A DNA stretch of 64,000 nt, from NCBI GenBank assembly GCA_036012755.1, contig DASCPX010000043.1, positions 32,001-96,000 of the forward strand, written 5' to 3'. This document shows, piece after piece, positions 798 through 62,240 of the stretch. How positions within the stretch are numbered: position 1 is the first letter of the stretch; the number at the start of each line of letters is the position of its first letter. The translations under genes and the position numbers were made by a program. The notes beneath the pieces were generated by a model. That model saw only the letters and a list, made by a program, of their open reading frames with translations, was not told the origin of the DNA and did no database searches. The stretch comes from Myxococcota bacterium. Its GTDB lineage: Bacteria > Myxococcota_A > UBA796 > CAJQPC01.

Positions 798-1319
798 TCA
801 GTCCCCCGAGGGGTTCTTGAGCACGCGGAAGTCGGTGACCTCGAACTCGACGGTCTGGTCATTGATCTCGATGGGATCGCCCTCGTACTCGAGGGGCTCG
901 ACGACCACTCCCCACCAGGACACCCGGAAGGTGCCGTTGCCGATGTAGTGAATCGAGTTGTCGTTCGTCTCCCAGGTGGCCTCGGAGCCGTCGATCTCGA
1001 CGATCCCCTCCAACTCCTCGAACGAGTGCCAGTCCAGAACCACATCTTCTGCCAGGTCGTCCGGGTCATCGACGCAGCGCTTGTCGACGCGTCGTGCGGT
1101 CTCGACGGATAGCGCCCAGATCATCGGAACGGCTTCGACGTCGAGTGTCCGCACCGGCGACTCGACCGTCACCAAAAGCGGGACGCTCACCACGGTGTCA
1201 CCCGTCCCACTCACAAGGCCGATCCAGCCGTCAAGTTCGGTCCCGCGATGACAGTACACCGGGCCGATCGGCCTGGTCATCTGCGGTGTGGGGCTGCACG
1301 CCAACAGGACGATCAACAC
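798..1319 (-). CDS. hypothetical lipoprotein
   Basis: GTG start gives MLIVLLAC (lipobox-like), followed by an acidic globular sequence. The upstream extension in the ORF track runs into the IS remnant. Confidence 0.55.
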   Translation of the reverse strand: MLIVLLACSPTPQMTRPIGPVYCHRGTELDGWIGLVSGTGDTVVSVPLLVTVESPVRTLDVEAVPMIWALSVETARRVDKRCVDDPDDLAEDVVLDWHSFEELEGIVEIDGSEATWETNDNSIHYIGNGTFRVSWWGVVVEPLEYEGDPIEINDQTVEFEVTDFRVLKNPSGD

Positions 1320-1320
1320 C

Positions 1321-1521
1321 CCCGACGCCCTTCGTCGAGATCGGACTGCCTGCCCACGTGCGGATCGTCTTGGGCTCGAACTCCCTGGAGAGCTCCTCTG
1401 GAGACCGGCCGGAGCGGACGAGCTACCAGTCGCTGACGGTATGCAAGGAGCGGTCGGACTCGGGGCATGGGACATGCTCCTACGGACATTCGGGGATGTC
1501 CACGAAGCCCGGGTCACTCCA
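1321..1521 (-). mobile_element. degenerate IS3-family left end (terminal IR plus frameshifted OrfA fragment)
   Basis: The minus strand begins TGGAGTGACCCGGGCTTCGTGGACA (TG-initiated, IS3-type IR). An ATG at 1468 gives MPRVRPLLAYRQRLV / LVRSGRSPEELSREFEPKTIRTW / RQSDLDEGRR across two frameshifts, resembling IS3 OrfA HTH N-termini. Confidence 0.7.
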
Positions 1522-1637
1522 TCGAGCGCCAACACCACCTCCACCACGGGTAAGGTCCAAGTCGTGATGCAGGACTTCATCTCGTTCCTGAAGATCGGCG
1601 TCGAGGCGAGTGGAGTCCCGGCCCAAGTGCATGCTCG

Positions 1638-2631: not shown

Positions 2632-3795
2632 TTAGTCTTCACCCAACCCAACCGCCGCCGATGCCAGGCCGTCCCGAGACTCGATCGCGAGGATCGCGCC
2701 CGCGGCCTCGATCGACATGCCGCGGTCGTCCTGGCTCATGAAGCCGGCCAGCAGGGCGCGGTCGTCCATCATGCCGGCGCGGCCCAGGGCCTGGATCGAC
2801 TCCATCACGACCACCGGCTCCGGGTCGCCGAGCATGGCGACGATGGCCCTGTGGGCCTGCTTCTTGTTGCGCCCGGCGCCCTCTGTCGCGAGCACCCAGT
2901 GCGACAGCGACCACACGGCCTGCTGGCGCAGCTCGCGGTCCGTCGAGACCAGGGCGGCGAAGGCGGGATCGGGAGGGTGCTCGCCCCGGGCGATCAGGGC
3001 CAGGGTCGCCCAGTCCTCGACGGGCTCCGGGCCGATGTTCTTCGCCCTCTTCAGGAGAACGAGCGCGATCTCGTCGTCCCGCTGGGCGAGGTAGTCGACG
3101 GCCTCCAGCCGCCGCTCGAGGTTGTCGGAGTGCAGAGCCTCGCGAAAGCGTGACTCCCCCTCTGCGTGGCCCAGGTCCAACAGCGCGTTGGCGATGGCCA
3201 GCTCGAGCTCCTCCTCGACCAGCTTCGAGCCCTCGATCAGCGAGTCGGCGACTGGCAAACCGCTGGCTCCGACGTGGAGGAAGAAGGCGATCTCGAGGGG
3301 GTAGTCCCCTCGGCTCAGGTCAGCGCCCAGCGCCTCCAGCGCGGTGGTGTCACCCTGCATCGCCGCGGGCAGGGCCAGCGGTGCCCGGCGCCAGTGGAGC
3401 CGCTCGTCGTTCCAGCCGAGATCCGGCACGGAATGCCCGGCGCGGATGAGCGCCACGGCGGCGTGGCTGCGCGTGTAGGGATCTACGTCGCGAGCCGCCA
3501 GGGACGCGATGAGCGCATAGGCGTCGTCTTCGTCGCGCTCGGCCAGGGCCTCTACTCCAGCCCGCTGGACGTAGGGCGAGGGGTCGAAGAGCGCCCTTGG
3601 GCCCCACTCGGCGCCCTCGTACCGAATCAACAGCGACAGGGCGCGAGCACGGACAGCGACGTCCAGCTCCGCGGCGGCGGTCTCGAGGGTCGCGCTGGCG
3701 TCGCCCTCGCCAGGCTCGACCTCGATGACGGCGATCTCGGTGACCGGGACCTTCTTGCAGGCCGACAGAGACAGGAAGCTAGCGAAGAAGAGCAT
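2632..3795 (-). CDS. HEAT-repeat lipoprotein
   Basis: MLFFASFLSLSAC lipobox; HEAT-like repeats (DPSPYVQRAGVEAL, SDNLERRLEAVDYL, DRELRQQAVWSL, DPEPVVVMESIQAL). Overlaps the end of the upstream gene. Confidence 0.8.
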   Translation of the reverse strand: MLFFASFLSLSACKKVPVTEIAVIEVEPGEGDASATLETAAAELDVAVRARALSLLIRYEGAEWGPRALFDPSPYVQRAGVEALAERDEDDAYALIASLAARDVDPYTRSHAAVALIRAGHSVPDLGWNDERLHWRRAPLALPAAMQGDTTALEALGADLSRGDYPLEIAFFLHVGASGLPVADSLIEGSKLVEEELELAIANALLDLGHAEGESRFREALHSDNLERRLEAVDYLAQRDDEIALVLLKRAKNIGPEPVEDWATLALIARGEHPPDPAFAALVSTDRELRQQAVWSLSHWVLATEGAGRNKKQAHRAIVAMLGDPEPVVVMESIQALGRAGMMDDRALLAGFMSQDDRGMSIEAAGAILAIESRDGLASAAVGLGED

Positions 3796-5884
3796 CGATC
3801 CGCTGTTGAGCCAGCTTGTGGAGCTCGTGGTTCTTGTCACCCACGAGCTTCTGCACCTGGCTGTACAGGGACAACGCGCGCTCCACCTGGTTCGCGCTCT
3901 CGAGCACCCGGGCCTCCTTGTACTTGTCGGAGGCCTCTGACTCGAGGCGGGCCTGGACCTCGCTCAGCTTCTGCTTCGCGGCGGCGTGGTAGGGGTCGAG
4001 GCGGAGGGTCTCCTTGAGCTTGCTGCGCGCGGTCAGGTTGTCACCGCGCGACATCGAGGCCATGGCGTGCTTGTAGGGCTCCGCGGCCGCCCGGCGCATG
4101 CGGGACTTGACGTCGGAGATGCCCTCTTCTGCCTGGTAGTAGTAGGGGGTCGAGCGCTCGGGATCCGCGGACTTCACGCCCTCGAAGCCTGACAACGCGC
4201 TGCTCCAGTCGCCGCGGTCGAGCGCCGCCTTGGCGTCCTCGTACATGGGACCGATGCTCTCGGCGAGCCTTGCATGCTGCCGATCGGTGGCGGCCCTGGC
4301 GACGACGCCGCTGCGGCGCTGGAGCTGCTTGGAGAGGGCCGCGAGATCCTCGTCGTCGGGGTTCAGGCGCAGGGCCTGCCGCACGGCGTCCCTCGCGTCG
4401 CCGAGGTTGGCCTTGCCGTCCAGCGCCGCCTTGCCCATGGCCAGGGCTTCCTGGCGGGCGACCTTCTTGTCGGCCTCGCTGGCCGCGGCCTGCTCGACGA
4501 CGTCCTGCATCGCCTGGATGGCGATGAACTCGCAGGCGACGTAGCCCATGCGCTCGGCGTCCTCGTGACCGGGATCCATCTTCAGGATCTGGAGGAAGCG
4601 CGAGGTCGCCGCGTAGTACTCCTCGTCCATGAACAGCCCGATGCCCTCCTGCATCAGGCCGTCGATCTCTGCGAGGTCGGCGTCGTCCAGGTCCGTCGTC
4701 CTGTGCTCGTACCCGCCCTCGCTCTTGACGACCTTCGCGGTGCGCGGAGTCGCGGCGAAGTCCAGCACCACCTTGCCGACGAACATCGCGGCGACGAGGC
4801 ACAGGATGACCCCGATGGCGAGGCGAATCGGGGTGACCAGCGGCTTCGACGGTCGAGGCGCAGGTCCCCCGCCGAGCTCCGCCCCGCCGAAGCCAGGACC
4901 GCCAGGGCCCGGCTGTCCGAAGCCCGGCTGCTGGGCCGGTGCGCCGAAGCCCGGCTGCTGGGCCGGTGCGCCGAAGCCCGGCTGCTGGGCGGGGGCGGCG
5001 AAGCCCGGCTGCGGGGCTGGAGCGCCGAAGCCTCCAGGCGCGGGGGCCGGCTGGTTGTGGGGCACCTGTGTCGGCTGCGCGGGCCAGGCGCCGTTGCCCG
5101 GAGGGGGAGGCGGGGCGGCGGGGAAGCTCGGCACGCCGGAGTGGGCCCGGGTCGGAGCGTCGAGGATGCCTCCGAAGGCCTCTGTGTGTTCGGGCTCGTC
5201 TGGGGGGAGGATGTCCGTGGAGCGGCCCCCGTCCATCGTCATGAAGCGAAGCTCGGTCGAGCCGATGCGGATGACGTCGCCGTCGATGAGGCGCTTCTCG
5301 CGAATGCGCTGCTCGTTCACGAAGAGCCCGTTGGCGGCGCCGGTGTCCTTCGCGATGAAGTCGCCCGCGATGGAGACGATCTCGCAGTGCAGGCGGCTGG
5401 CGGAGAGATCGGGGATGACGATGTCCCGCTGCTCGGAGCGGCCCATCGTCAGCCCCGCCTCCGTCAGCGGGTAGTTCGGCCGCATTCCATGGACAGAGGT
5501 GATGACCTCCAGCACCGCTGGAGGGGGCCCCTCCGTCAACGCGGGTGGCGCGGCGGAGCTCGGCGCGGTGTTCGTGCCGGTCGACTCCGGCTCGCCGACC
5601 TCGAAGCGCAGCAGGAAGGGGTCGATGCTGACCTCGTCGCCGTGACGGATCGCCGTCGAGCTGATCCGCTGGCCCTCGAGCCAGGAGCCGTTCCCGCTAC
5701 CCAGATCCTCGAAGACGACGCCCACACCGTCCACGACGATGCGCGCGTGGCGCCGCGACACACCGATGTCGGGGAGGCAGATCTCGTTGTCTTCGGCGCG
5801 CCCGAGCCTGGACACGCCCGCCTGAAGCGGGACACGCCGGTCGGGAAAACCCGGTCGCACGACGATGAGGCCGACGGGGTTCAT
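3779..5884 (-). CDS. double-FHA, single-TM, TPR-repeat protein
   Basis: Two FHA motifs (LGR...VSRRHA...DLGSGNG; MGR...ASRLHC...DTGAANG), a Pro/Gly/Gln linker, a TM helix (LAIGVILCLVAAMFVGKVVL) and TPR-like helices. GGAGG lies upstream of ATG 5884. Confidence 0.85.
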   Translation of the reverse strand: MNPVGLIVVRPGFPDRRVPLQAGVSRLGRAEDNEICLPDIGVSRRHARIVVDGVGVVFEDLGSGNGSWLEGQRISSTAIRHGDEVSIDPFLLRFEVGEPESTGTNTAPSSAAPPALTEGPPPAVLEVITSVHGMRPNYPLTEAGLTMGRSEQRDIVIPDLSASRLHCEIVSIAGDFIAKDTGAANGLFVNEQRIREKRLIDGDVIRIGSTELRFMTMDGGRSTDILPPDEPEHTEAFGGILDAPTRAHSGVPSFPAAPPPPPGNGAWPAQPTQVPHNQPAPAPGGFGAPAPQPGFAAPAQQPGFGAPAQQPGFGAPAQQPGFGQPGPGGPGFGGAELGGGPAPRPSKPLVTPIRLAIGVILCLVAAMFVGKVVLDFAATPRTAKVVKSEGGYEHRTTDLDDADLAEIDGLMQEGIGLFMDEEYYAATSRFLQILKMDPGHEDAERMGYVACEFIAIQAMQDVVEQAAASEADKKVARQEALAMGKAALDGKANLGDARDAVRQALRLNPDDEDLAALSKQLQRRSGVVARAATDRQHARLAESIGPMYEDAKAALDRGDWSSALSGFEGVKSADPERSTPYYYQAEEGISDVKSRMRRAAAEPYKHAMASMSRGDNLTARSKLKETLRLDPYHAAAKQKLSEVQARLESEASDKYKEARVLESANQVERALSLYSQVQKLVGDKNHELHKLAQQRIDALLR
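4917..5030. repeat. 27-bp coding tandem repeat (QQPGFGAPA-type units)
   Basis: CCGAAGCCCGGCTGCTGGGC... recurs at 4917, 4944 and 4971, with a degenerate copy after. Confidence 0.85.
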
Positions 5885-5932
5885 GCCGGGAGACACCTCC
5901 AAACTCCGAATAATACTGGAGACGCCACCTCG

Positions 5933-6865
5933 TCAGGGTCGTCCAGTCATCTTCCGTGCTTTCTTGAGGTAGTCGACGGTCTGCTTGTGGATCGCAGAGG
6001 ACTCGTCGGTCTCCAGCTGGAGCACGGTCTCCCAGAGGTTCACGGCCTGGTCGTACTGCATGGCCTCGTAGGCTCGGACGCCTGCGTCGTAGTTCTCGTT
6101 GATCTGCTCGTCGATCTCGATCGTCAGGCGCTCGATGCGAATGCCGCAGATCTCGCACTTCGGGTCGAGCTTCATCGCCATCTGGTAGTGCTCGAGGCCC
6201 TCGCGCAGCCGCCCGGCGTTGTAGTGCTTGTGGCCCATCTCGACGAGCTCGGACGACTTCGCTCCCTTGGGCGGGTCCGGCCACTCGTCCTGCTCTGTCA
6301 GGGGCCTGCCCGAGGTCGTAGCCAGGGCCTCTCCGAGGCTGACGGTCTCCTCTGCCTTGGTCTTGCCGCCCTTGAGCGCCCCACCGAGCACGCTCTTGGG
6401 TTCGTCGTCGACGTCCTGCTCCGATCCGCCGTCGCTCCCGGCGACCGCGATCAACCCCACGAGCGCGAGGAGGATGAGCAGGGCGACCGCGAAGGGCCAG
6501 ACCTTCCACTTCTTCTCCGGCTCGGCGACAGCGTCGAGGTTGACGCTCACGGAGTGCTCCGAGTCCGGATCCTGCATCTCCATGGTGAAGCGGTGGGCTC
6601 CCAGCGCCAGCACGTCCCCGGGTCCGAGCTGCTTGTTCTCGGCGACCCTCGCGTCGTTCACGAAGATGCCGTTTCTGGAGCCGGCGTCCTGAACCCAGAC
6701 CGCGCCGTTGTGCAGGACGACCCTGGCGTGGAAGCGGGAGACGTCGTTGTCCGGCAGGTGGAGCTCGTTTCCGGGATCCCGGCCGATGCGCAGCCCGGCC
6801 TGGGTGATCTCGAAGCTCTTGCCATCGAAGTAGCCCGCGATGCCGACGAGGGTTGGGGTGGTCAC
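5933..6865 (-). CDS. FHA-TM-TPR protein
   Basis: IGRDPGN...VSRFHARV...DAGSRNG; TM (VWPFAVALLILLALVGLIAVA); C-terminal TPR-like helices. Confidence 0.85.
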   Translation of the reverse strand: MTTPTLVGIAGYFDGKSFEITQAGLRIGRDPGNELHLPDNDVSRFHARVVLHNGAVWVQDAGSRNGIFVNDARVAENKQLGPGDVLALGAHRFTMEMQDPDSEHSVSVNLDAVAEPEKKWKVWPFAVALLILLALVGLIAVAGSDGGSEQDVDDEPKSVLGGALKGGKTKAEETVSLGEALATTSGRPLTEQDEWPDPPKGAKSSELVEMGHKHYNAGRLREGLEHYQMAMKLDPKCEICGIRIERLTIEIDEQINENYDAGVRAYEAMQYDQAVNLWETVLQLETDESSAIHKQTVDYLKKARKMTGRP

Positions 6866-8457: not shown

Positions 8458-8810
8458 CAGCCGATCTCCAGGACGTCGCCTGGCTGGGTCGAGGTCGCAG
8501 CGATCGTACCTACCGGGAGCTCGATGGCGTAGCGACTGCCCCAGTGGACCTTGCTGAGCCGCCACGGACGCAGCTCCTCGACGCAGCCGGTGACGTGGGC
8601 GTCAGCGTCGGCGAAGACCACGTCGAGGGCGTAGCGCATGAAGAACATGTGGACGCTGTTGCATGGCTCGAGCACGAAGCCTTCGCCCGCCGCTGGCTCC
8701 GGCCGACCGAGCAGGCCCCGAGCGCGCTCGAAGAAACCCGTAGCGTGAGCTGCCTGCTCTGCGAGGACGCTTTGACGCGTCCGGTTTCGCACGCAAACCG
8801 TCTTCATCAC
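8457..8810 (-). CDS. DUF192 family protein
   Basis: 'ERARGLLGR...PCNSVHMFFMRYALDVVFAD...YAIELPVG...GDVL' is typical of DUF192. Confidence 0.9.
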   Translation of the reverse strand: MMKTVCVRNRTRQSVLAEQAAHATGFFERARGLLGRPEPAAGEGFVLEPCNSVHMFFMRYALDVVFADADAHVTGCVEELRPWRLSKVHWGSRYAIELPVGTIAATSTQPGDVLEIG

Positions 8811-33260: not shown

Positions 33261-33281
33261 GGCCAGGACCCTGGAGGTCCC

Positions 33282-35408
33282 ATGATCCTGTTGCTGCTGT
33301 CCGCTTGCCCCAAGCCCCAGCCCGCCGACGAGGTCCTCGCCCTGACGGCCCCCGCTTCGATCTACCCGGAGACGATGAAAGGCGACGTGGTCGACGACTA
33401 CCACGGCACCCCAGTGCCGGATCCCTACCGCTGGCTCGAGGACAGCGAAGCCGAGGACGTCCGCGCCTGGATCGACGCGGAGAACAGACTCACAAAGGCC
33501 TACCTCGGCCAGATCGACGAGCGGGAGCGCATTCGAGCACGGATGACCGAGCTCTGGGACTACGAGCGGTACTCGATCCCCTACGAGGAAGGAGGGAGGT
33601 ACTTCTGGAGCCACAACGACGGCCTCCAGAACCAGTCCGTTGTCTACGTCGCCGACTCGCCCGAGGCCGAGGGCCGCGTGCTGCTGGACCCCAACACCCT
33701 CTCAGAGGACGGAACCGTAGCGCTCTCGGGCACCTGGGTGAGCGAGGACGGCAGGTACCTCGCCTACGGCGTCTCCGACGCGGGCAGCGACTGGAAGACC
33801 ATCCAGGTCATGGAGATCGAGACCGGGGACGTCCTCGACGACAAGATCGAGTGGGTCAAGTTCTCTGGCGCGTCCTGGACCCACGACGGCAAGGGCTTCT
33901 TCTACAGCCGCTTCGACGAGCCGACCGACGAGGGCCTGGAGTCGATCAACTACTACCAGAAACTGTTCTACCACCGCATCGGAACGGACCAGTCAGAGGA
34001 CGAGCTCGTCTTCCACAACCCCGACGAGAAGCGCTGGGGCTTCTATGCGGGAATCACCGAGGACGGGCGCTACGCGGTGATCTACAACTGGGAAGGGACC
34101 GACCGGAACAACCGCATCTTCTACAAGGACCTCGCCAAGGGCGGCGAGGTGGTCCCATTCCTGATGGACTTCGACGCCAGCTACGCTGTCATCGGGAACG
34201 ACGGCACCCGCTGGTACATCGAGACGGACAAGGACGCCCCGAAGAAGATGGTGGTGGCGTACGACCTCGAGCGACCCGCCAAGAAGCCCGAGATCCTCAT
34301 CCCCGAGAGCGAGGATCCGCTGCGTGGTTGCAGCATGCTCAACGAGCAGTTCGTCTGCAGCTACCTCCACGACGTGAAGACACAGGTCAAGGTCTTCGAC
34401 CTGAAGGGCAAGCCGGTGCGCGACGTGGAGTTGCCCGGCATCGGCTCCGCCTGGGGCTTCGGCGGGGACCGCGAAGACACCGAGACGTTCTACAGCTTCA
34501 CATCGTTCACCACACCCGGCACGATCTATCGCTACGACATGAAGTCCGGAGAGAGCACGCTGTTTCGCGCCCCCGACGTCTCGATGCCAGAGGGCGAGTA
34601 CGTGACGACGCAGGTCTTCTACCCGTCAAAGGACGGAACGAAGATCCCGATGTTCATCACGCACAGAACCGGCGTGGAACTCGACGGAGAAAACCCCGCC
34701 TTTCTCTCCGGCTATGGCGGCTTCGACATCTCGATCACGCCCTACTACTCCACCGTCAACCGGGTCTGGCTCGAGATGGGTGGCGTGCTGGCCATCGCGA
34801 ACCTCCGCGGCGGCGGCGAGTACGGTGCGGACTGGCACGACGCCGGGCGCCTGAAGAACAAGCAGAACGTCTTCGACGACTTCCACGCCGCGGCGGAGTA
34901 CCTCATCGCAGAGGGCTACACGACCACGGACCACCTCGGCATCGGCGGACGCAGCAACGGCGGACTCCTGGTCGGGGCCGCCATCACACAGCGTCCGGAT
35001 CTGTACGGCGCGGCGCTCCCCGGTGTCGGCGTGCTCGACATGCTGCGTTTCCACGAGTTCACGATCGGACACGCCTGGACGTCCGACTACGGCGACCCGG
35101 ACGATCCCGAGATGTTCCCGGTCCTCTTTGCATACAGTCCCTATCACAACGTAGAGGACGGGAAGGAGTACCCACCGACCCTGATCACGACCGGCGACCA
35201 CGACGACCGCGTGGTGCCAGGGCACAGCTTCAAGTTCGCGGCCCGCATGCAGGAGGCCCAGGCCGGCGGTGACCCGGTGCTGATCCGGATCGAGACCCGG
35301 GCTGGTCACGGCGCTGGAAAGCCCACCGAGCTGCAGATCGCGGAGTGGACCGACCAGTGGGCCTTCCTAGTCAAGAACCTGGGGGTCATACTGCCAGAGG
35401 AGTTCTGA
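33282..35408 (+). CDS. prolyl oligopeptidase (S9A), lipoprotein
   Basis: 'DPYRWLE', 'YGGF', 'NLRGGGEYG', 'KQNVFDDF', GRSNGG nucleophile, 'DHDDRVVPGHS', 'AGHGAGKP'. GGAGG RBS. Confidence 0.95.
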   Translation: MILLLLSACPKPQPADEVLALTAPASIYPETMKGDVVDDYHGTPVPDPYRWLEDSEAEDVRAWIDAENRLTKAYLGQIDERERIRARMTELWDYERYSIPYEEGGRYFWSHNDGLQNQSVVYVADSPEAEGRVLLDPNTLSEDGTVALSGTWVSEDGRYLAYGVSDAGSDWKTIQVMEIETGDVLDDKIEWVKFSGASWTHDGKGFFYSRFDEPTDEGLESINYYQKLFYHRIGTDQSEDELVFHNPDEKRWGFYAGITEDGRYAVIYNWEGTDRNNRIFYKDLAKGGEVVPFLMDFDASYAVIGNDGTRWYIETDKDAPKKMVVAYDLERPAKKPEILIPESEDPLRGCSMLNEQFVCSYLHDVKTQVKVFDLKGKPVRDVELPGIGSAWGFGGDREDTETFYSFTSFTTPGTIYRYDMKSGESTLFRAPDVSMPEGEYVTTQVFYPSKDGTKIPMFITHRTGVELDGENPAFLSGYGGFDISITPYYSTVNRVWLEMGGVLAIANLRGGGEYGADWHDAGRLKNKQNVFDDFHAAAEYLIAEGYTTTDHLGIGGRSNGGLLVGAAITQRPDLYGAALPGVGVLDMLRFHEFTIGHAWTSDYGDPDDPEMFPVLFAYSPYHNVEDGKEYPPTLITTGDHDDRVVPGHSFKFAARMQEAQAGGDPVLIRIETRAGHGAGKPTELQIAEWTDQWAFLVKNLGVILPEEF

Positions 35409-36487: not shown

Positions 36488-36495
36488 TATCCGGC

Positions 36496-37935
36496 ATGCC
36501 TTGGCTCTACACGCTGCTCGGAGCGCTCCTGGCCCTCGGCCTGTCGATCGTGCCGCTGGCTGGTCTGGATACAGACCTGGAGTTCATGCCGAGCATCGTC
36601 GACCAGCTGCAGGTGGGCGGCCTGCTGTCGGCCATCTGGCCGTGGTTCTTCTGCGGGCGCGCCGCCGCTCGCCTGCTCGGATGGAGGAGGTCGGCGCTGG
36701 CGGGCACCTTGCTCGCCAGCGCGCTCGCGACCGTGGGGCTCGGGAGCATCCTCATGGACGTGATGCTCCCGAGGCACGTGATGCTGCTCGCGAGCTCCGG
36801 CGCAGCGAGCTCCGCGCTGCTCTGGTGGGTCTGTGATCGCCTCCGCGAACGAGGTGCCCTCGGCGGCACGATGACCGTCATGGGCGGGGTGCTGCTCCTG
36901 GATCTCCCGAGGCTGGCGATGGGCCACGGGGCATCGCTGGCCACCGACCCGAGCATCCTGCTCTTCGTTCTCGGAGCCGCGGCGCTGCTGAGCCCCGCGG
37001 CCCTCGGCGTAGCGCTCTGGAGGCGACTGCCCGAGCGGCCCCCGCCGTGGCTCCCGGTCAAGCACCCCCTGGAGCTCATGCTGTTGCCGCTGGCAGTCGG
37101 CGAGCTGGTCTCGGGTCTGCGGGCGCCCGGTCTTCCCTACGTCCTGGACAGCCTGGCCATGCTCGGGGCGGTCGCCCTGGTCCTCTGGCTCACCCGCGCC
37201 AGGACCCAGGGCCCACCAATGCTGGCCGGAGCCGGCGTCGTCGAAGGACTCGTCGTGCTCGGGTCCCTCTGCTGGGGAATCCACGCCACCAGCGACATCC
37301 TCGGCGCGCGCTACGTAGAAGGGCCCGTCGACGGCAGCCACTCGGTCCGGGTCCTCTGCACGGCGCCGGGGGCCGACCTCGCCGAGATCGAGCGCATGCG
37401 GGCCCGCATGGACGAGCTGCGCATCGAGGGCAACGTGCAGCTCCTCGACGGTCTCGTCCAGCTCGAGCTGCTCGATGTCGCCGAGCCGACGGAGCTGATG
37501 GACACGCTGACCGCGCCGAGCCGCTTCGAGATCCGTCCGGAGAACGTGGGGGATCCGGTGCTCTCGGTCGCCCAGTGCCCTGGCTGCGAGGTGATCGACC
37601 TGGGCGAGGTCGTGCTCACAAACAGCCACATCGCCAAGGCGACGATGAACATAGGCTACGCCGGTGCGCCGGGGGTGGCCCTGGAGTTCACCCCCGACGG
37701 AGAGGCCACCTTCGCCGCCCTGACGACCCAGACCGTGGGCTCTCGCATAGCGCTGATGGTGGACGGCCAGGTGCTGTCGGCCCCCTACGTGATGGAGCCC
37801 ATCACCGGCGGCAAGGCCTGGCTCACCCTCGACGGGGCCTCTGTCGAGGACGCCCAGGTCATCGCGACGCTCCTGTCCCTGGAGCCACTGGAGGCGACCT
37901 GGATCGCCCGGGACTTCCAGGAGATCACTCCCTGA
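36496..37935 (+). CDS. multi-TM protein (SecY-like N-part) fused to SecD P1-like domain
   Basis: C-terminal 'PGVALEFTPDGEATFAALT...RIALMVDGQVLSAPYVMEPITGG' is the SecD P1 head signature. The N-part has SecY-like segments (see findings). Confidence 0.7.
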   Translation: MPWLYTLLGALLALGLSIVPLAGLDTDLEFMPSIVDQLQVGGLLSAIWPWFFCGRAAARLLGWRRSALAGTLLASALATVGLGSILMDVMLPRHVMLLASSGAASSALLWWVCDRLRERGALGGTMTVMGGVLLLDLPRLAMGHGASLATDPSILLFVLGAAALLSPAALGVALWRRLPERPPPWLPVKHPLELMLLPLAVGELVSGLRAPGLPYVLDSLAMLGAVALVLWLTRARTQGPPMLAGAGVVEGLVVLGSLCWGIHATSDILGARYVEGPVDGSHSVRVLCTAPGADLAEIERMRARMDELRIEGNVQLLDGLVQLELLDVAEPTELMDTLTAPSRFEIRPENVGDPVLSVAQCPGCEVIDLGEVVLTNSHIAKATMNIGYAGAPGVALEFTPDGEATFAALTTQTVGSRIALMVDGQVLSAPYVMEPITGGKAWLTLDGASVEDAQVIATLLSLEPLEATWIARDFQEITP

Positions 37936-38476
37936 TCCGCCCCGCCGTGCAGGTGGCCTCCGTCGCCTTGCAGATGGCGAAGGCCTGGGCACAGCGGACG
38001 ATGACCTCTTCGCCGTCGCGGATGCGGACGAGTCCGGCGAGCTCGGGCTCGCCCTCGACCCACTCGGCCCAGATCTTGTAGGTGCCCACGTCGACGGGGC
38101 CGGCGCCAAAGGCCTTGTCGCCCTCGCCCACGAGCACGGCCTTGAGCGCGTCACCCTCGAAACGCACCAGGCTGTCGCCGGTGGGGCAGACCTGGTTTCC
38201 CTCCCAGGTGGCGCCGGGAGTGCGGACGGGCAGACAGAGGGCGAAGGCGTCGTCGCAACGCAGGGTGACGATCTCGTCGGCGACCAGCGTGACGCGGCCA
38301 GCGACGAAGGGTGGACCCTCCGCCCAGGTCGTCAGCACGAGGTAGCGGCCCGCGGGCACCTCTCCAGGGGGAGTGAAGGTGCCCTCTGCGCCGAGGAGCT
38401 CGACCTTGCGTACGTTGCCCTCGACGAGGACGGTGGCGGGCTCCTGTGCGAGAGCCATGGCGAGTGTCAGAAGCAT
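37925..38476 (-). CDS. secreted hypothetical protein with two ~70-aa internal repeats
   Basis: MLLTLAMALA; repeats end in 'VPAGRY...AGRVTL...LRCDDAFALC' and 'VDVGTY...AGLVRI...VRCAQAFAIC'. Confidence 0.75.
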   Translation of the reverse strand: MLLTLAMALAQEPATVLVEGNVRKVELLGAEGTFTPPGEVPAGRYLVLTTWAEGPPFVAGRVTLVADEIVTLRCDDAFALCLPVRTPGATWEGNQVCPTGDSLVRFEGDALKAVLVGEGDKAFGAGPVDVGTYKIWAEWVEGEPELAGLVRIRDGEEVIVRCAQAFAICKATEATCTAGRIRE

Positions 38477-39185: not shown

Positions 39186-39220
39186 GGCAGCGATGGTAGC
39201 CGGCGGCATAGAGTGCTGCC

Positions 39221-46421: not shown

Positions 46422-47006
46422 TTGCGGACCCCAGCCACCGGCACGCGCCAGCGCATCATCGACGAGGGCACCAGGCTCTTCGCCGAGCAGGGCTACGCGG
46501 GCACGAGCGTGCGCCAGATCGTCGAGGCCGCCGGCGTCACGAAGCCGACCCTCTACTACTGGTTCGGAAACAAGGAGGGCCTCTTCGGCGCTCTCGTAGA
46601 CGTCCACATGGGTCACTGGTTCGAGGTGCTGGAGGCCATCGTGAACGGCGAAGGCAGCGCCCTCGAGCGCCTCGACGCCTACCTCCGGGCCTCGCTGCGA
46701 GAGGCCAGGGACAAGCCAGAGGTCCTCTCCTTCCTCGCTCAGGCCTTCCACCAGGCGGGCCAGGGCGCCACGGGGGTCGACTGCACGCGCTTCGTCGCGA
46801 CCGAAGCCCGACTCCTGACCCAGCTCGCAGCAGATGGCATCGAGGCCGGCGAGCTCCGCGCGGGGCTCCGGCCGGACGACGTAGCCCTTGCCGCGATCGG
46901 CCTCGTGCACATCCGTATCGGCGCCTGCCTGCACGGGGGCGTTCCGCTCTCGGAAGAGGCCGCCGCCGCCGCCGCCGACATCCTTCTAAACGGAGTGAGC
47001 CCTTGA
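46422..47006 (+). CDS. TetR/AcrR family regulator
   Basis: TTG start after GGGGAGG; 'LFAEQGYAGTSVRQIVEAAGVTKPTLYYWFGNKEGL'. Confidence 0.92.
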   Translation: MRTPATGTRQRIIDEGTRLFAEQGYAGTSVRQIVEAAGVTKPTLYYWFGNKEGLFGALVDVHMGHWFEVLEAIVNGEGSALERLDAYLRASLREARDKPEVLSFLAQAFHQAGQGATGVDCTRFVATEARLLTQLAADGIEAGELRAGLRPDDVALAAIGLVHIRIGACLHGGVPLSEEAAAAAADILLNGVSP

Positions 47007-48052: not shown

Positions 48053-48058
48053 GTCACG

Positions 48059-55665: not shown

Positions 55666-55720
55666 TCCACTGCATTAACGAAGAGGGACCAGGCGGCCTC
55701 CAAGAGAGCGGAGAGCCGAC

Positions 55721-56317
55721 ATGTTCCAGCCACGACAGACCCGCGCCCCCTTCGGCCGCCAGGCCGGCGCAGCACTCATGGCGACGCTGCTGGTGGGCAG
55801 CGCCCTCGGCCTGGCCGTCTTCGGCGGAGGACAGAGCATCGAGGAGCTCGTCGACGACGAGCCGATCTTCCTGATGGAGCTGGTAGAGGACGACGCCCTC
55901 CCCCCGCCGCCCGCTGGCACCGAGGCTGGCGGCGCGCCCCAAATGACAGAGGAGCCCGAGATCACAGAGGAGCCCGAGATCACAGAGGAGCCCGAGATCA
56001 CAGAGGAGCCCGAGACGACCGAGGTCCATGGCGACGCCATCGCCGGCCTCACCGACGACCCCTTCAGCAACGGCCTCTTCGACAACGGCGGCGGAAACTG
56101 CATCCGTGACTGCGGAGAGGGCAGCGGGTCGACCCTGCGCCACGTGGCCATCGATGAGCGGGGGCGCGTCTCGTCCCTGAGCTTCCTGGCCTGCCCCGAG
56201 GTCTTCCAGGACAGCACCCGCCGAGCGCTCATGCGCTGGCGCTTCGAGCCCCTGTCGATCGACGGGGTTGCAGGCCCCACCACGACCACTGCCAACATCA
56301 CGTTCAGGCTCTCGTAG
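55721..56317 (+). CDS. divergent TonB-like protein (paralog of the next gene)
   Basis: TM, Pro run, spacer repeats and a TonB_C-like end 'IDERGRV...ACPEVFQD...ALMRWRFEP...ITFRL'. Confidence 0.75.
   Translation: MFQPRQTRAPFGRQAGAALMATLLVGSALGLAVFGGGQSIEELVDDEPIFLMELVEDDALPPPPAGTEAGGAPQMTEEPEITEEPEITEEPEITEEPETTEVHGDAIAGLTDDPFSNGLFDNGGGNCIRDCGEGSGSTLRHVAIDERGRVSSLSFLACPEVFQDSTRRALMRWRFEPLSIDGVAGPTTTTANITFRLS
55946..56014 (+). repeat. 18-bp tandem repeat ACAGAGGAGCCCGAGATC, about 4 copies (TEEPEI)
   Basis: Directly visible in the sequence. Confidence 0.9.
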
Positions 56318-56390
56318 CCCCACACACCCTTGACGAGGTGCGCGTTATAGTGCGCCGTCCCGCCCCGGGGCGGCATCCGGAGAGCCTCCT

Positions 56391-57110
56391 TTGTTCGACA
56401 CGATCGGCAAGGCCCGCAAGGTCAACCGTCGCCGCCAGGCCGGCTCCTGGCTGATGTCGATCATGATGCTCGCCACCGCCGGCGGCGCGGTCGTCTTCTC
56501 CGGTGGGCAGATCGTCGAGGAAATCGAAGACGACGAGCCCATCGAGGTCACGTTCATCGACGACGCGGCCCCTCCACCTCCACCTCCACCTCCACCTCCA
56601 GCCGGCGCAGAGAAGGAAGAAGAGGAAGAAGAGGAAGAAGAGGAGGAGGAAGAGGAAGAAGAAGAGGAGGAGGTCGAGGAGCTCGAGGAGGAGATCCCGG
56701 AGCCCATCGAGACCACCGACGCCAGCGTGGAAGGTGGCGTCGAGGGAGGCGTCGAGGGAGGCGTCGTCGGTGGCGTCATCGGCGGCGAGATCGGCGGTGT
56801 GCTGGGCGGGCAGCTCGGCGGCACTGGCGTCAAGGCGCTCCACTGGAGCCAGGCCAAGCCCAAGAAGAAGTGCATCCCGAAGATGCCGAAGGCAGCCAAG
56901 GAAGCCGGCATCGAGGGCAACTGCAAGGTCCGGATCTTCATCGGCGAGAGCGGCAAGATCTACGACTACAAGTACGAAGCCTGCCCCAAGATCTTCCAGG
57001 ACACGGTGGCCGAGTGTATGGCAAAGACGACCTTCTACCCGGCCAAGGACGAACACGGAGTGACCTACAAGTTCCAGTTCGTCTTCAACTACCAGTTCGT
57101 GCTGAGGTGA
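56391..57110 (+). CDS. tonB: energy transducer TonB
   Basis: TM anchor, P10, E19, GGVEGGVEGGVVGGVIGG and TonB_C 'PKAAKEAGIEGNCKVRIFIGESGKI'. Confidence 0.85.
   Translation: MFDTIGKARKVNRRRQAGSWLMSIMMLATAGGAVVFSGGQIVEEIEDDEPIEVTFIDDAAPPPPPPPPPPAGAEKEEEEEEEEEEEEEEEEEEEVEELEEEIPEPIETTDASVEGGVEGGVEGGVVGGVIGGEIGGVLGGQLGGTGVKALHWSQAKPKKKCIPKMPKAAKEAGIEGNCKVRIFIGESGKIYDYKYEACPKIFQDTVAECMAKTTFYPAKDEHGVTYKFQFVFNYQFVLR
56571..56672 (+). repeat. (CCTCCA)5 poly-Pro and 19-codon GAA/GAG poly-Glu tracts
   Basis: Located at 56571-56600 and 56616-56672. Confidence 0.9.
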
Positions 57111-57119
57111 GCGGATTCC

Positions 57120-57824
57120 ATGAGTTTTGATCTCCAACACATCTGGGAGGCTTCGACTCCCCAGACCCTCACCATCCTGGTGATGCTGTTCATCATGGGC
57201 ATCATGGCGCTCTACGTCGCCATCGAGCGCTTCGTGTCGCTTCGAAAGGCGACCGAGCAGTCCAGGGAGCTGGCAGCAGCGCTGGCCACCCCCTTCAAGA
57301 GCGGCGACGTCGAAGCCGGCGCGAAGCTCTGCAAGGACGAGCGCTTCAAAGCCAGCTACCTCGGCCACCTGATGCGCCCGGCCCTGGGCGAGCTCGCCAC
57401 GCGCTTCGATCGACCCGGAGTCGACGCCGCAGAGCGAGCCCTGGAGCGCGCCAACACCCAGGAGGGGCTGGATCTGCGCAAGGGCATGAACATCCTCGCC
57501 ACCGTCGGCTCCACGGCGCCCTTCGTCGGCCTCGTCGGCACGATCTTCGGCATCATCAACGCCTTCTCGGCCATGGCCGAAGCAGGCGGAGGTGGCCTGG
57601 GTCAGGTCTCCGCAGGCATCGCAGAGGCCCTGGTCGCGACCGCCGTCGGGATCTTCGTCGCCATCGTCGGTGTGTGGTTCTACAACTACTTCAACGCCCG
57701 CATCGACCGCATCGACAACGACATCAGCGTCGCCAGCCAGGAGTTCAACGACTGGTGCGAGAAGCAGCTCCTGGCTCGGTCGGGCGACGAGCCCCCCACC
57801 GAGCGGGTCCTCGCCACAAAGTAG
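57120..57824 (+). CDS. exbB: MotA/TolQ/ExbB proton channel
   Basis: 'LATVGSTAPFVGLVGTIFGIINAF...GIAEALVATAVG'. Confidence 0.92.
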   Translation: MSFDLQHIWEASTPQTLTILVMLFIMGIMALYVAIERFVSLRKATEQSRELAAALATPFKSGDVEAGAKLCKDERFKASYLGHLMRPALGELATRFDRPGVDAAERALERANTQEGLDLRKGMNILATVGSTAPFVGLVGTIFGIINAFSAMAEAGGGGLGQVSAGIAEALVATAVGIFVAIVGVWFYNYFNARIDRIDNDISVASQEFNDWCEKQLLARSGDEPPTERVLATK

Positions 57825-57833
57825 GGGTAGGCA

Positions 57834-58256
57834 GTGGGCGCCAAGGTCGGAGGAAGCAGCGGAGGTCCCGTCGCGGACATCAACGTCACGCCGTTGATCG
57901 ACGTCGTGCTCGTGCTGCTCATCATCTTCATGGTCGTCACGCCGATGCTGTCCTCGGGCATCGACGTGAAGCTGCCCGACGCCAAGCAGACCGTGCAGGC
58001 CCAGGACAACGGCCAGCACATCGTCATCTCGATCGACAGAGAAGGCGACATCTACATCGGGCGCAACAAGATCGCTCTAGAGGTCCTCATCGACGAGGTC
58101 AACGCCGAGTACCGCAAGGACCCCGCGAAGGCGGTCCTCATCAAGGCCGACTCCAACCTCCACTACGGCGAGGTCCGGGCAGTCATGGACGAGCTCGCCG
58201 AGAACGGCAAGAGCACGCTCCTGCTCGCCGCAGAGAAGAAGAAGGGGGGCGAGTAG
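57834..58256 (+). CDS. exbD: ExbD/TolR
   Basis: 'DINVTPLIDVVLVLLIIFMV...IKAD'. Confidence 0.92.
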   Translation: MGAKVGGSSGGPVADINVTPLIDVVLVLLIIFMVVTPMLSSGIDVKLPDAKQTVQAQDNGQHIVISIDREGDIYIGRNKIALEVLIDEVNAEYRKDPAKAVLIKADSNLHYGEVRAVMDELAENGKSTLLLAAEKKKGGE

Positions 58257-58724
58257 ATGGGCGCGCGGGTCGGCGGCAAGAGAGGCGCCCAGAGCGACAT
58301 CAACGTCACCCCGCTGATCGACGTCGTGCTCGTGCTGCTCATCATCTTCATGGTCCTGACCCCCCGGACCATCGAGGAGATGACGGCGAACCTGCCCTCG
58401 AAGACCGAGACCGTGAAGAAGAAGGACGACAAGAAGGACCAGCTGCTCGTCGCGGTCTACGAGGACGGGAGCGTCGCCCTGAACCTGGTGGCGATGAACG
58501 ACCGAGAGGTCTGGGACCAGCTCCGCAAGCGGCTCCGGGCCAAGGAGAAGAAGGTCGTCTTCGTCGACGCCCACCCGAACCTGCCCTACGGCCGGGTCGT
58601 CCAGATGATGGACCTGGTGAAGGACGCCGGCGCCGACCGGGTCGGGCTCGCGCGGCTCAAGGACGAAGGCCCCGTGAAGCCGCCAGACGGCACCGAAGCC
58701 GCCCCCCCGGCCCCCACCGAGTGA
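58257..58724 (+). CDS. exbD: second ExbD/TolR
   Basis: 'DINVTPLIDVVLVLLIIFMV...YGRVVQMMD...AG'. Confidence 0.92.
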   Translation: MGARVGGKRGAQSDINVTPLIDVVLVLLIIFMVLTPRTIEEMTANLPSKTETVKKKDDKKDQLLVAVYEDGSVALNLVAMNDREVWDQLRKRLRAKEKKVVFVDAHPNLPYGRVVQMMDLVKDAGADRVGLARLKDEGPVKPPDGTEAAPPAPTE

Positions 58725-59545: not shown

Positions 59546-60276
59546 AGTCCCGCCTGGATGTCCTGCTCGTCGAGCGGGGAATCGCGCCCAGCCGGGAGAA
59601 GGCCCGGGCCTGGATCATGGCCGGGCTCGTGCTCGTGGACGAGGTCGAGGTCAGCAAGGCCGGCGCGAAGATCGACGGCGAGGCGAGCATCCGCCTGCGC
59701 GAAGGGGCCCTCCGCAAGTACGTCGGCCGCGGCGGGCTGAAGCTCGAAGGCGCCCTGGAAGACTTCGACGTCGAGGTCGAAGGACGCATCTGCGCCGATC
59801 TCGGCGCGTCGACTGGAGGCTTCACCGACTGCCTGCTCCAGCGCGGGGCGGCGAGGGTCTACGCCGTCGACGTCGGCTACGGCCAGCTCGCCTGGAAGCT
59901 CCGCCAGGACGAGCGCGTAGTTGTCATGGAGAGGACGAACGCGCGCCACCTGGAGTCACTACCGGAGCCGATCGGCCTCGTCGTAGGAGATCTCTCCTTC
60001 ATCTCGCTGACCAAGGTGCTCCCCGCCGTCCGGCGCATCGCCGCCCCGGGCGCCGACTGCGTTCTGCTCGTCAAGCCCCAGTTCGAGCTCGGGCCGAAGA
60101 ACGTCGGAAGAGGCGGCCGCGTGAGCGATCCGGCGGCTCGGGCCCGCGCCGTACAGGCCGTCCTCGCCGACGCTGTTGCGCTCGACTTCGAGGCCCTCGG
60201 ACACGCCGAGAGCAGGCTCCCGGGTGCCAAGGCAGGCAACATCGAGCACCTCGTATGGCTGAGAGCGAGCGAATGA
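59542..60276 (+). CDS. tlyA: TlyA rRNA 2'-O-methyltransferase
   Basis: S4 'RLDVLLVERG..SREKA'; 'YVGRGGLKL', 'DLGASTGGFTDCLLQRGA', 'DVGYGQL', 'LVKPQFE', 'GNIE'. Confidence 0.95.
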   Translation: MKSRLDVLLVERGIAPSREKARAWIMAGLVLVDEVEVSKAGAKIDGEASIRLREGALRKYVGRGGLKLEGALEDFDVEVEGRICADLGASTGGFTDCLLQRGAARVYAVDVGYGQLAWKLRQDERVVVMERTNARHLESLPEPIGLVVGDLSFISLTKVLPAVRRIAAPGADCVLLVKPQFELGPKNVGRGGRVSDPAARARAVQAVLADAVALDFEALGHAESRLPGAKAGNIEHLVWLRASE

Positions 60277-60314
60277 GACGATACACTGGGCCTCTGGACT
60301 AGATGGAGGCACCC

Positions 60315-62240
60315 GTGTTCCTGTTGACCCTGGCGTGCACGTGGGTCTCCCAAGAGTCCTACGACGACCGGCTGAAGCAGCTGGACGACGACGGCGACGG
60401 CTTCACCCTCGACGGGGGTGGCGATCCGGCGCTCGTCGACTGCAACGACGACGACGCGGCGATCAATCCGGGCGCCGAAGAGGTCTGGTACGACGGCGTC
60501 GACTCCGACTGCGCCGGTGACGACGACTACGACAAGGACCTCGACGGCTACCAGCACGAGAGCTCCCCGGACGCCACGGCGGTGGACTGCAACGACCAGG
60601 ACCCGGAGATCTTCCCGGGGGCGGATGACTCCTGGTACGACAACATCGACAGCAACTGCGACGGCGCCGATGACTTCGACCAGGACGGCGACGGCGTCCA
60701 GGCGCGTCCTCCGGAGGGCCCCGGGAACGACTGCAACGACCTGGACCCCGACTTCCGCTACGACCCCAACGACCCACCCGTCGACAGCTGGTACGACGGG
60801 ATGGACCACGACTGCGAGGGGAACAACGACTTCGACCAGGACGGGGACGGCTACGTCGCCACCGAGTACCTGGATGTCGACACGTACTGGGACGCGGACC
60901 TCACCATCGACTGCAGCGACTGCCTGACCGGACGCGACTTCGACTGTGACGACGAAGAGGCCACCACCTACCAGGGCGCGACGGACGCCTGGTACGACGG
61001 CGTGGACTCGGACTGCGCGGGGGACAACGACTACGACCAGGACCTCGACGGCTTCTCCGACCCCTCGGACCCCGACGCGACGATCACCGACTGTGACGAC
61101 GAGGACATCGAGGCGAGCCCTGATGGTCTGGAGGACGTCACGGACCCCCGCGACCTCGACTGCGACGGCAGCTACAACTCGGTGAAGGCCCCCGACCAGG
61201 GCCTGGTCTTCGTGAGCCCGCACGACCTCCGCGCGGGCGAAGACTCCAACCGGACCTACTTCTCGGTCGCCGGCAGGGAGATCACCCTGGCTTCGTCCGG
61301 GACGACCTACTACGACACCGCCGTCGGCTTCTGGTACAGCTTCACCGACCCGACCGCCGGCATCCAGGGCGAGGACATCTGGCTCACCAAGCTCACGTCC
61401 AACCCCGCGGGGCTGGATCTGTCCAGCGGGCACGATGTCGTCATCGACGATGGCTACATCTACGGCGCCACGGGACTGCTGACCTCATCTGGTCGCCGCG
61501 TCGACATCTCGCGCTACGACATCAGCGCGACAACGACGCAGCAGGCGGTCAAGCTCGAGAGCGGTCCGACCGTCGACTTCAACGACATCGCGCTGGGCAT
61601 CGAAGACGGCGTCTACCACGCCTTCGCCTGCGCCGACACGGACATCCAGTACGTCCAGGCCAACGACGCCACGATCCTCGCCGAGGCCATCGAGGGCAGC
61701 GCCTACTACACCGCGGGCGGCGCCACCTCTTGCAGCGTCCACTTCTTCGATGGCGCCGACCTGGGCATCCTCGGCGTCACGGAGACCTCCACCGGCGACT
61801 ACGTCACCTACAGCTTCGACCCAGAGGAGTCCGCGCCCACCCTGACCGAAGAGACCAGGGGCAGCGACGTCTCCCCCGCGGACCTCGACTATCCCTGGTT
61901 CACGAACCAGCTGACAGTGGTCCTCGTCGACGACGTCAACAGCCTCGTCATCGTGCGCCAGGGTGGCAGCGAGGCCCAGATCGTGACCCCCGGCCCCCCC
62001 TTGAACGCGGCGCTGGCCGTGCACCCGACCGACGGAACGCTCTACGTGGCCTGGGCCGACGTTGGCGGCACCGCCGGTTTCGCTTACGGCGACGTCACCT
62101 CTGGCTTCACGAAGGCTCGCATCACCACCAGCTTCGTGGCCTACGAGGCGGTGCCGTGGGTGACCGCGACGGGCAACCACCTGATGCTCGGCGTGCTGGG
62201 TTCGAGCGAGGTCGGCGTGGCGGTGCTCTCCGCCCCCTGA
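60315..62240 (+). CDS. lipoprotein with MopE-related (putative metal-binding) DC-D...PGA..WYDG.D.DC repeats
   Basis: About five such repeats, then a beta-rich domain. GGAGG precedes GTG 60315 (MFLLTLAC); ATG 60303 is an alternative start. Confidence 0.85.
   Translation: MFLLTLACTWVSQESYDDRLKQLDDDGDGFTLDGGGDPALVDCNDDDAAINPGAEEVWYDGVDSDCAGDDDYDKDLDGYQHESSPDATAVDCNDQDPEIFPGADDSWYDNIDSNCDGADDFDQDGDGVQARPPEGPGNDCNDLDPDFRYDPNDPPVDSWYDGMDHDCEGNNDFDQDGDGYVATEYLDVDTYWDADLTIDCSDCLTGRDFDCDDEEATTYQGATDAWYDGVDSDCAGDNDYDQDLDGFSDPSDPDATITDCDDEDIEASPDGLEDVTDPRDLDCDGSYNSVKAPDQGLVFVSPHDLRAGEDSNRTYFSVAGREITLASSGTTYYDTAVGFWYSFTDPTAGIQGEDIWLTKLTSNPAGLDLSSGHDVVIDDGYIYGATGLLTSSGRRVDISRYDISATTTQQAVKLESGPTVDFNDIALGIEDGVYHAFACADTDIQYVQANDATILAEAIEGSAYYTAGGATSCSVHFFDGADLGILGVTETSTGDYVTYSFDPEESAPTLTEETRGSDVSPADLDYPWFTNQLTVVLVDDVNSLVIVRQGGSEAQIVTPGPPLNAALAVHPTDGTLYVAWADVGGTAGFAYGDVTSGFTKARITTSFVAYEAVPWVTATGNHLMLGVLGSSEVGVAVLSAP

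Follow-up and report, generated by a model that had tools for sequence, protein, structure and literature searches.

In the PROSITE rule for prokaryotic lipoproteins, the Cys lies at about residue 15–35 and at least one Lys or Arg is found within about the first seven residues. The leaders of type IV prepilins, the substrates of signal peptidase (SPase) III, comprise 5–10 residues, are basic, and are cut between Gly and Phe or Met in front of a hydrophobic helix with Glu at position +5. A review ascribes a positively charged n-region to Sec and lipoprotein signals alike (PMC9360617). Here we analyzed a 64,000-nt stretch of DNA (hereafter the window; positions 32,001 to 96,000 of contig DASCPX010000043.1, assembly GCA_036012755.1, from a Myxococcota bacterium), in which a preliminary description had noted lipoprotein-type and SPase I-type N-termini that are ultra-short and devoid of Lys and Arg. 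All 13 quoted N-termini were found when the window was read at their coordinates, and the feature turned out to extend over the whole genome. We consider it quite probable, judging from the sequences, that these N-termini are real and act as minimal Sec signal peptides of the SPase II and SPase I types. The source genome (G000; the window is its contig C43:32001-96000) comprises 6.73 Mb in 250 contigs with a G+C content of 68.4%; it has 21 matches to the MYXO-CTERM tag (TIGR03901) versus none in 14 control genomes, which fits Myxococcota, and the window stretch is also present in marine metagenome runs from several studies.

The leaders use the plan of a Sec signal peptide but fail two defining features of textbooks and annotation rules. 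Like canonical SPase II signals such as that of E. coli Lpp, they are N-terminal and have a hydrophobic core, a lipobox of the form L-x-[AGS]/C (a slash marks the predicted cleavage site throughout) and a flexible tether; as with canonical lipoproteins elsewhere, they sit on the same protein families, and Lgt and LspA are encoded. Unlike canonical SPase II signals, they have no basic n-region, the Cys comes at residue 7–11, and the core spans 5–7 residues. The SPase I-type leaders, as read by eye, resemble canonical ones in a core followed by small residues at positions -3 and -1, on BamA, OmpA-domain proteins, TonB-dependent receptors and cytochromes c, but are only 10–15 residues long, lack Lys and Arg, and have their core starting at residue 2–4. 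With type IV prepilins they have in common a very short leader that is, here by prediction, cleaved off; unlike in prepilins, the hydrophobic segment is the leader itself, basic residues are missing, and the predicted cut lies before Cys or after a small-x-small site. Tat signals differ by their twin-arginine motif, which the short leaders do not contain.

Two described cases come closer. In engineered charge-free signals of E. coli, the charge can be dispensable (Zalucki et al. 2007, PMC2034453) and, going by the title of Hikita and Mizushima 1992, made up for by hydrophobicity, as we propose for G000; those, however, are single constructs with normal or extended cores, whereas the G000 state is natural, proteome-wide and combined with shortened cores. 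Metallo-beta-lactamases of Myxococcus, Pyxidicoccus and Corallococcus, from the same phylum, have type II leaders described as considerably shorter than that of NDM-1 (PMC13616975); the remark concerns one enzyme family, the portion of the article used here is silent on missing charges or 7-residue leaders, and expression in E. coli gave soluble periplasmic enzyme. Full-text literature searches brought up no description of Sec leaders that are ultra-short and uncharged throughout a proteome.

Short uncharged leaders in the source genome

A custom-built gene finder (5988 genes called, 94% of the genome covered) was combined with a lipobox filter applied to 75 codons per gene, from 30 before to 45 after the coding onset, excluding genes that run off contig ends. 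A lipobox-like Cys was present at the coding onset of 880 genes. In 613 of these, every usable start yields an uncharged leader of 6–10 residues, most commonly 7; a further 155 could use either a classical or a short uncharged start, 82 permit only a classical one, and 30 have no usable start. Taking the start nearest to the onset (n = 872), leader length peaked at 7 residues (228 genes, with 93 at 6, 153 at 8, 95 at 9 and 52 at 10), 650 leaders fell within 6–11 residues, and a minor second mode was seen at 15–18 residues. At about 15% of all genes called (880/5988, with about 1.3% false matches expected), the lipobox genes amount to a very large predicted lipoproteome.

The consensus reads M-L-L-L-L-L-A/C-[TGSA], followed by a tether rich in Pro, Asp and Glu. 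In the logo of the 613 leaders, the lipobox is evident from Leu at -3 (399 genes) and -2 (345), Ala (424), Gly (113) or Ser (76) at -1, and Cys at +1. The short cores, which span 5–7 residues (classical leaders of G000, median 13), consist of Leu to 42% (classical, 29%) and have a mean Kyte–Doolittle value of 2.62 (classical, 2.10). A twin-arginine motif (RRx##) was found in 8 of the 82 classical leaders; the short leaders hold no Arg. Inflation by paralogues or recent transfer can be discarded as the origin of these numbers: the mature parts of the 613 proteins form 397 single-linkage clusters, 345 of them singletons, and the short-leader genes cannot be told apart from the classical set by codon usage. 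As a chance control, the onset span of 3444 genes of at least 260 codons was compared with an equally long mid-gene span under the same filter, giving 550 matches at the onset, as opposed to 45 mid-gene; the uncharged run contained a start codon in 491 and 17 of these, respectively, so that the pattern is well in excess of chance.

Short starts might be artefacts of annotation, with the real start lying upstream, at a non-canonical codon or beyond a recoded stop, and giving an ordinary basic leader. This idea draws on the 155 genes that offer both options, on upstream in-frame canonical starts in six of the 13 window cases, and on one window gene (54724, below) for which public calls are divided between 313 and 341 aa. 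It is countered by the 239 genes with an in-frame stop no more than 20 codons before the Cys: here the maximum possible leader is mostly 7–9 residues, and 211 genes allow no Lys or Arg from canonical starts, while 25 do and 3 are startless. In 115 of the 239, no Lys or Arg codon at all occurs between stop and Cys; where the stop lies within 12 codons, this applies to 84 of 116. The bounding stops are TAG (101), TGA (85) and TAA (28), and the same three codons end genes (1644, 4062 and 163, respectively), so that recoding of one stop cannot explain the pattern and was dismissed. Of the short starts, 48% have a Shine-Dalgarno-like motif ahead of them, a frequency as high as at other well-bounded starts (39%), against 18% at random internal sites; start-codon usage equals that of other genes, and in 284 of the 613 genes the onset of coding potential precedes the short start by 0 to 2 codons. 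Altogether, start miscalls and stop recoding are unlikely.

In the window, the genes concerned and two further ones of interest, the MscS-family channel and the peptidyl-arginine deiminase-type protein, are the following:

798..1319, minus strand: gene without a Pfam match; GTG start, leader VLIVLLA/C, Cys after 7 residues
1638..2138, plus strand: gene without a Pfam match; leader MSWMILAA/C, Cys after 8 residues
2632..3795, minus strand: HEAT-repeat lipoprotein; leader MLFFASFLSLSA/C, Cys after 12 residues
11536..13149, plus strand: ABC solute-binding protein (SBP_bac_5); leader MLLFALA/C, Cys after 7 residues
16590..21266, plus strand: 1558-aa PKD-domain protein; SPase I-type leader MLALGFLISAHA/A, 12 residues
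23871..25364, minus strand: MscS-family channel; N-terminus MFFLLLSWFSAAFAG, short and uncharged, a case additional to those of the preliminary description
33282..35408, plus strand: prolyl oligopeptidase (S9); leader MILLLLSA/C, Cys after 8 residues
35408..36487, plus strand: peptidyl-arginine deiminase-type protein; twin-arginine lipoprotein leader MNRRRLLQGLSALPIVG/C (printed also as MNRRRLLQGLSALPIVGC)
37925..38476, minus strand: gene without a Pfam match; SPase I-type leader MLLTLAMALA/Q, 10 residues
38467..38787, minus strand: small Cys-rich protein; GTG start, leader VIALVLSLA/C, Cys after 9 residues
38784..39185, minus strand: PEGA-domain lipoprotein; leader MLALLLSLSLFG/C, Cys after 12 residues
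40132..41487, minus strand: DUF2330 protein; SPase I-type leader MLITLFVGQAHA/F, 12 residues
47003..48052, plus strand: RND membrane-fusion protein (HlyD family); TTG start, leader LILLLSLMS/C, Cys after 9 residues
54724..55665, plus strand: gene without a Pfam match; leader MTLALFAA/C, Cys after 8 residues
60303..62240, plus strand: MopE-type metal-binding-motif protein; MEAPVFLLTLA/C from ATG 60303 or VFLLTLA/C from GTG 60315

Nine of the 13 quoted cases start with ATG, three with GTG (1319, 38787, 60315) and one with TTG (47003); in these last four, residue 1 is therefore Met by initiation only. According to a codon-usage log-odds model trained on G000, the coding onset lies at or beside the short start for most window cases; the MscS gene came to light in this analysis as well. 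For 10 window genes, the proteins read from the short ATG start were looked up in a public protein collection, which held the exact form for nine of them, the 60303 form not being among these; longer public calls coexist with the short ones for 54724 and 39185.

At 33282, the best constrained of the window cases, a TAG in frame is located 7 codons before the start, and GGAGG occupies -9 to -5. An assembly error at this start was considered and rejected, since the sequence from 32958 to 33403 is identical (0 differences) in contigs from the runs of three other studies, a fourth covering 33261–33601. The asserted overlaps with the preceding stop codon were found, at 38787 (GTGA), where 57 open codons upstream hold no canonical start, and at 47003 (TTGA, with the stop of a TetR gene), where this holds for 239 open codons. 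At 1638, 28 open codons without ATG, GTG or TTG lie upstream, and at 16590 an in-frame stop is located 3 codons upstream; the exact proteins of both are in the public collection. The same is true of 41487, upstream of which GGGAGGAG is located. At 60303, a stop directly precedes the ATG, from which the N-terminus reads MEAPVFLLTLAC, with one Glu and no Lys or Arg; the 60315 alternative lacks Lys and Arg as well. An alternative ATG for 39185, at 39209 (8 codons upstream), would add MPPATIAA, again without Lys or Arg, and both forms have been called publicly.

Less secure are the starts at 1319, 3795, 11536, 38476 and 54724, for which upstream in-frame alternatives would bring in Lys or Arg. At 1319, the coding onset falls exactly on the short start, and the in-frame upstream starts are 52–87 codons away. 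For 3795, a GTG 15 codons upstream adds an Arg and places the gene in the class permitting both options; the short form is in the public collection. ATG 11491 would put MAPSIRLAERAIAGC ahead of the leader of the solute-binding protein, the public call being the 537-aa short form. Upstream GTGs at -18 and -40 relative to 38476 fall within the preceding gene, and the short form is again publicly held. The least secure start among the window cases is that of 54724, with three ATGs 24–28 codons upstream.

Several window carriers belong, by Pfam, to families that work outside the cytoplasm, namely SBP_bac_5 (11536), the RND membrane-fusion protein (47003), and the PEGA (39185), DUF2330 (41487), PKD (16590) and MopE-motif (60303) proteins. 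Genome-wide, eight exported families were located in G000, the start nearest to the coding onset was taken, and Lys or Arg was sought before the first hydrophobic 7-mer. Of the resulting 84 open reading frames (ORFs), 49 have no Lys or Arg before the core, which begins at residue 4 or earlier in 47 of them; 25 have Lys or Arg before the core, 8 lack a hydrophobic N-terminus under this rule, one lies at a contig edge and one is without a start. Within the group of 25, the rule chose a start upstream of a short leader in several cases, for example MAPSIRLAERAIAGC-MLLFALAC, and 2 of the 8 are visible short leaders just under the threshold, for example MLWLSMTLALA. Short uncharged leaders are present in 6 of 6 Omp85/BamA-family ORFs, the best BamA match beginning with (V)IHLLLAFWIALA/QSG, and 14 of 20 MYXO-CTERM proteins lack Lys and Arg. 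CXXCH periplasmic cytochromes begin with MILPVLLALGTAEA/AD... and (L)FLFALLSTALA/ED..., without Lys or Arg. OmpA-domain proteins, TonB-dependent receptors, TolC-like proteins, solute-binding proteins and membrane-fusion proteins are further carriers. Read by eye, the SPase I-type leaders showed h- and c-regions, examples being MLLLSALSLAHA/E and MILPVLLALGTAEA/A; the core begins at residue 2–4 of 10–15, and small residues are seen at -3 and -1 (...AHA/A, ...ALA/Q, ...AEA/A); it is the basic n-region that is missing, in the said 49 of 84.

The classical twin-arginine leader at 35408 indicates that long charged leaders are still encoded within the window. At 55715–58724 (plus strand) lies a TonB-TonB-ExbB-ExbD-ExbD cluster, both TonB_C proteins of which are basic N-terminally before the membrane anchor, suggesting that signal-anchor proteins retain the positive-inside pattern and cleaved leaders do not. 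Directly after the short-leader membrane-fusion protein at 47003, a single ORF of 1506 aa (48053–52573, plus strand) combines an AcrB-type RND pump (ACR_tran, residues 9–1038) with two C-terminal OEP repeats, an unusual fusion of an inner-membrane pump to a TolC-like outer-membrane channel. Three adjacent genes at 3779–8460 (minus strand) have N-terminal FHA domains that also match Yop-YscD_cpl, one of them with a PAS domain, and adjoin a T2SS-F-like membrane protein at 8807–9709.

Distribution among relatives

The leader of the S9 peptidase encoded at 33282 was followed by eye in orthologues from 19 related genomes. Twelve of these lack Lys and Arg (for example MHMLLLSLIAC, MTPLMLLSLAC, MTHLLLLALAC and MLVALLSC), five have such residues (for example MSRPPLIALLIAAC and MHINPRLSISLYTLVLLLSC), one is without a signal and one without an N-terminal match. 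In other phyla (19 loci read of 80), by contrast, 13 homologues have classical leaders of 18–25 residues with Lys or Arg and none has a short uncharged one; the remainder comprises four cyanobacterial proteins without a leader and two unclear cases (L065, L099). Many of the relatives' leaders (loci L002–L019) open with MH... or MTH..., as in MHMLLLSLIAC, MHLIPALLLAGAC and MTHLLLLALAC. This N-terminal His may be a remnant, itself weakly basic, of the n-region; in G000, His occurs in only 9 of the 613 short leaders.

For a wider survey, the DNA pattern RTG-(NTN)5-GCN-TGY, which encodes Met or Val, five of Phe, Leu, Ile, Met or Val, then Ala and Cys, and captures the extreme form only, was counted in 401 genomes of the phylum. 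G000 has 74 occurrences, compared with 6–7 when unrelated first codons are substituted. The counts were:

own genus, g1 (G000): 74
genus g4: 106 and 69
genus g6: 25
family f7, all 12 genomes: 5–53
G387 (family f6): 20
some members of families f5 and f3: 7–16
same class, other orders, 18 genomes: 0–2
rest of the phylum: 0–5, with one genome at 8
reversed-pattern control: 0–3

The full pipeline was also run on samples of 180–220 kb per genome; the samples are small and relatives are not independent observations. The fraction of lipobox genes with uncharged leaders only was 14/20 in G000 itself, 16/21 in G012, 10/23 in G003 and 5/16 in G004 (all of the same family), 21/31 in G308 and 7/19 in G219 (f7), 10/27 in G158, a single contig of 9.4 Mb, and 5/15 in G273 (both f3), 2/18 in G143 (same class, other order), and 0/16 and 2/42 in G375 and G247 (other classes of the phylum). 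Order-wide yet graded, the trait is all but missing from the 18 genomes of the other orders of the class and from most of the remaining phylum genomes sampled. The suggestion that the lineage uses a minimal export code is supported by the sequences, in that the short leaders are genome-wide, in many cases stop-bounded, placed on exported families and shared by relatives, but the lineage in question is one order, with gradations, and not the phylum.

On a FastTree SecY tree of 70 genomes, well-supported branches call for at least five changes to account for the extreme state, which occurs in the g1+g4 clade, G007, the whole of f7 and G387; a tree of one gene is of limited value as a proxy for the species tree. 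By this measure, the extreme short-leader form is one that arose several times. A relaxed n-region requirement appears to be ancestral in the order, with the 7-residue form becoming dominant several times.

Export machinery and competing explanations

The most economical reading of the above is that the carriers are ordinary Sec substrates with leaders stripped of the n-region and of most of the core. Sec export, lipidation, cleavage and hydrophobic compensation are what we infer for them, as follows. The leader would consist of the initiator Met, a Leu-rich core of about 5–7 residues and a cleavage motif, either the lipobox or a small-x-small site, with no basic n-region. In a first step, it would be targeted to the single SecYEG/SecA by hydrophobicity alone, as suggested by the per-residue hydrophobicity of the short cores, which exceeds that of the classical leaders in G000; Lgt would then add diacylglyceryl to the Cys, and LspA would finally remove the leader of 6–10 residues. 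Going by its title, a 1992 study by Hikita and Mizushima (cited in PMC5427057) reported that lengthening the hydrophobic stretch can make up for the N-terminal positive charge. In E. coli, export persisted when the basic residue at position 2 had been removed (PMC2034453).

Several points weigh against this assignment as minimal Sec signals. The summed core hydrophobicity is lower in the short than in the classical leaders (median 18.4 versus 27.4), and a core of 5–7 residues is shorter than any that, to our knowledge, has been shown to work in model bacteria. The gene finder and filter were home-made, the latter barring charged residues at -7 to -1 and requiring a relaxed lipobox, and the filter produced mid-gene false matches at a rate of about 1.3% (45/3444). 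No RNA run holding the 33282 locus (window positions 32800–36800) was found. A sizeable minority of leaders is classical (the 82 genes with a classical start only, up to 155 of those with both options, and 25 of the 84 exported-family ORFs), from which it follows that the short form is not obligatory. Nor did we find a machinery signature that would explain tolerance of short leaders, whether in Lgt and LspA copy number, in SecY and SecA count or in SecY alignment columns. Finally, the beta-lactamases of myxobacteria whose type II leaders are 'considerably shorter' were reported to be exported by E. coli without becoming lipid-anchored (PMC13616975), so that short leaders may not be generally functional.

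A more radical variant, which we regard as tentative and rather doubtful, is that this order of Myxococcota exports much of its envelope proteome, including BamA, by means of Met plus a Leu patch of 5–6 residues, read by a recognition step unlike the n-h-c code of textbooks. One candidate mechanism would then be co-translational capture of the extreme N-terminus, with formyl-Met or the free amino group taking the place of the n-region; another candidate would be action of Lgt and LspA on a leader that never spans the membrane. On this view, the independent attainment of the extreme form in at least four clades would suggest that selection favors short leaders once the constraint is lifted.

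An explanation by a dedicated paralogous branch, in which one of two LspA and some of five Lgt enzymes handle the real but short N-termini, appears improbable. What speaks for it is the gene content of G000, with five Lgt (PF01790) and two LspA (PF01252) matches, all above the curated cut-off, including a tandem lspA-lspA-lgt-lgt cluster at C59:100000-102591 (plus strand), outside the window. Across the 80 genomes surveyed from the family, order and class, however, LspA varies from 1 to 3 copies (with no match in 2 genomes) and Lgt from 2 to 7, unrelated to the trait: the high-trait genomes G219, G367, G387 and G392 have a single LspA, whereas trait-free members of the class have up to 3 LspA and 7 Lgt. 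Tandem lspA pairs beside lgt are seen again in relatives, whether or not these have the trait; low-trait genomes with tandem pairs include G273, G020 and G200. Dedicated paralogues were thus discarded as candidates.

The translocase itself gave no clue either. In G000, SecY and SecA are each matched once and SPase I three times, and a second SecY or SecA was not found there. No column of the SecY alignment separates high-trait from low-trait genomes; two candidate columns showed conservative changes only (I/L and V/I), and a Gly-to-Ala exchange in the conserved cytoplasmic ER-G-QRR loop was set aside, as low-trait f2 shares it and high-trait G392 and G372 lack it. The proposal in the preliminary description that the SecA, SecY, Lgt and LspA machinery is adapted to short leaders found no support in these copy-number and SecY comparisons.

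A still less probable reading accepts the N-termini as real yet not as cleaved Sec signals: they would be short hydrophobic tags holding the protein to the cytoplasmic face of the membrane, or would be recognized by some non-Sec export route. Such a view could invoke the fact that a core of 5–7 residues cannot span the bilayer, as well as the failure of lipidation that short myxobacterial type II leaders can show in E. coli (PMC13616975). Yet the carrier families detailed above work outside the cytoplasm, the Cys is followed by the usual lipoprotein tether rich in Pro, Asp and Glu, homologues elsewhere bear ordinary Sec leaders at the same place, and no second SecY or SecA was found in G000. 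Annotation artefacts, finally, are to be given hardly any credence in view of the stop-bounded genes, the coding onsets, the Shine-Dalgarno motifs and the reproduction of the sequence in other assemblies.

Implications for protein export in this order

If the short N-termini indeed act as minimal Sec signals, a basic n-region and a core of at least 10 residues would be dispensable in vivo, even on essential outer-membrane assembly factors, and leaders of about 7–13 uncharged residues would set a new lower bound for substrates of Sec, Lgt and LspA. This would touch on the n-h-c model, which underlies all predictors, the lipoprotein annotation rules and much of secretion engineering; for the latter, very short secretion tags would become conceivable. 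Annotation rules that need a Cys at residue 15 or later plus Lys or Arg would probably miss most lipoproteins of this order. With its graded states and repeated intensification of the trait, the order may offer a comparative system for tracing the requirement to a property of the machinery or of the membrane.

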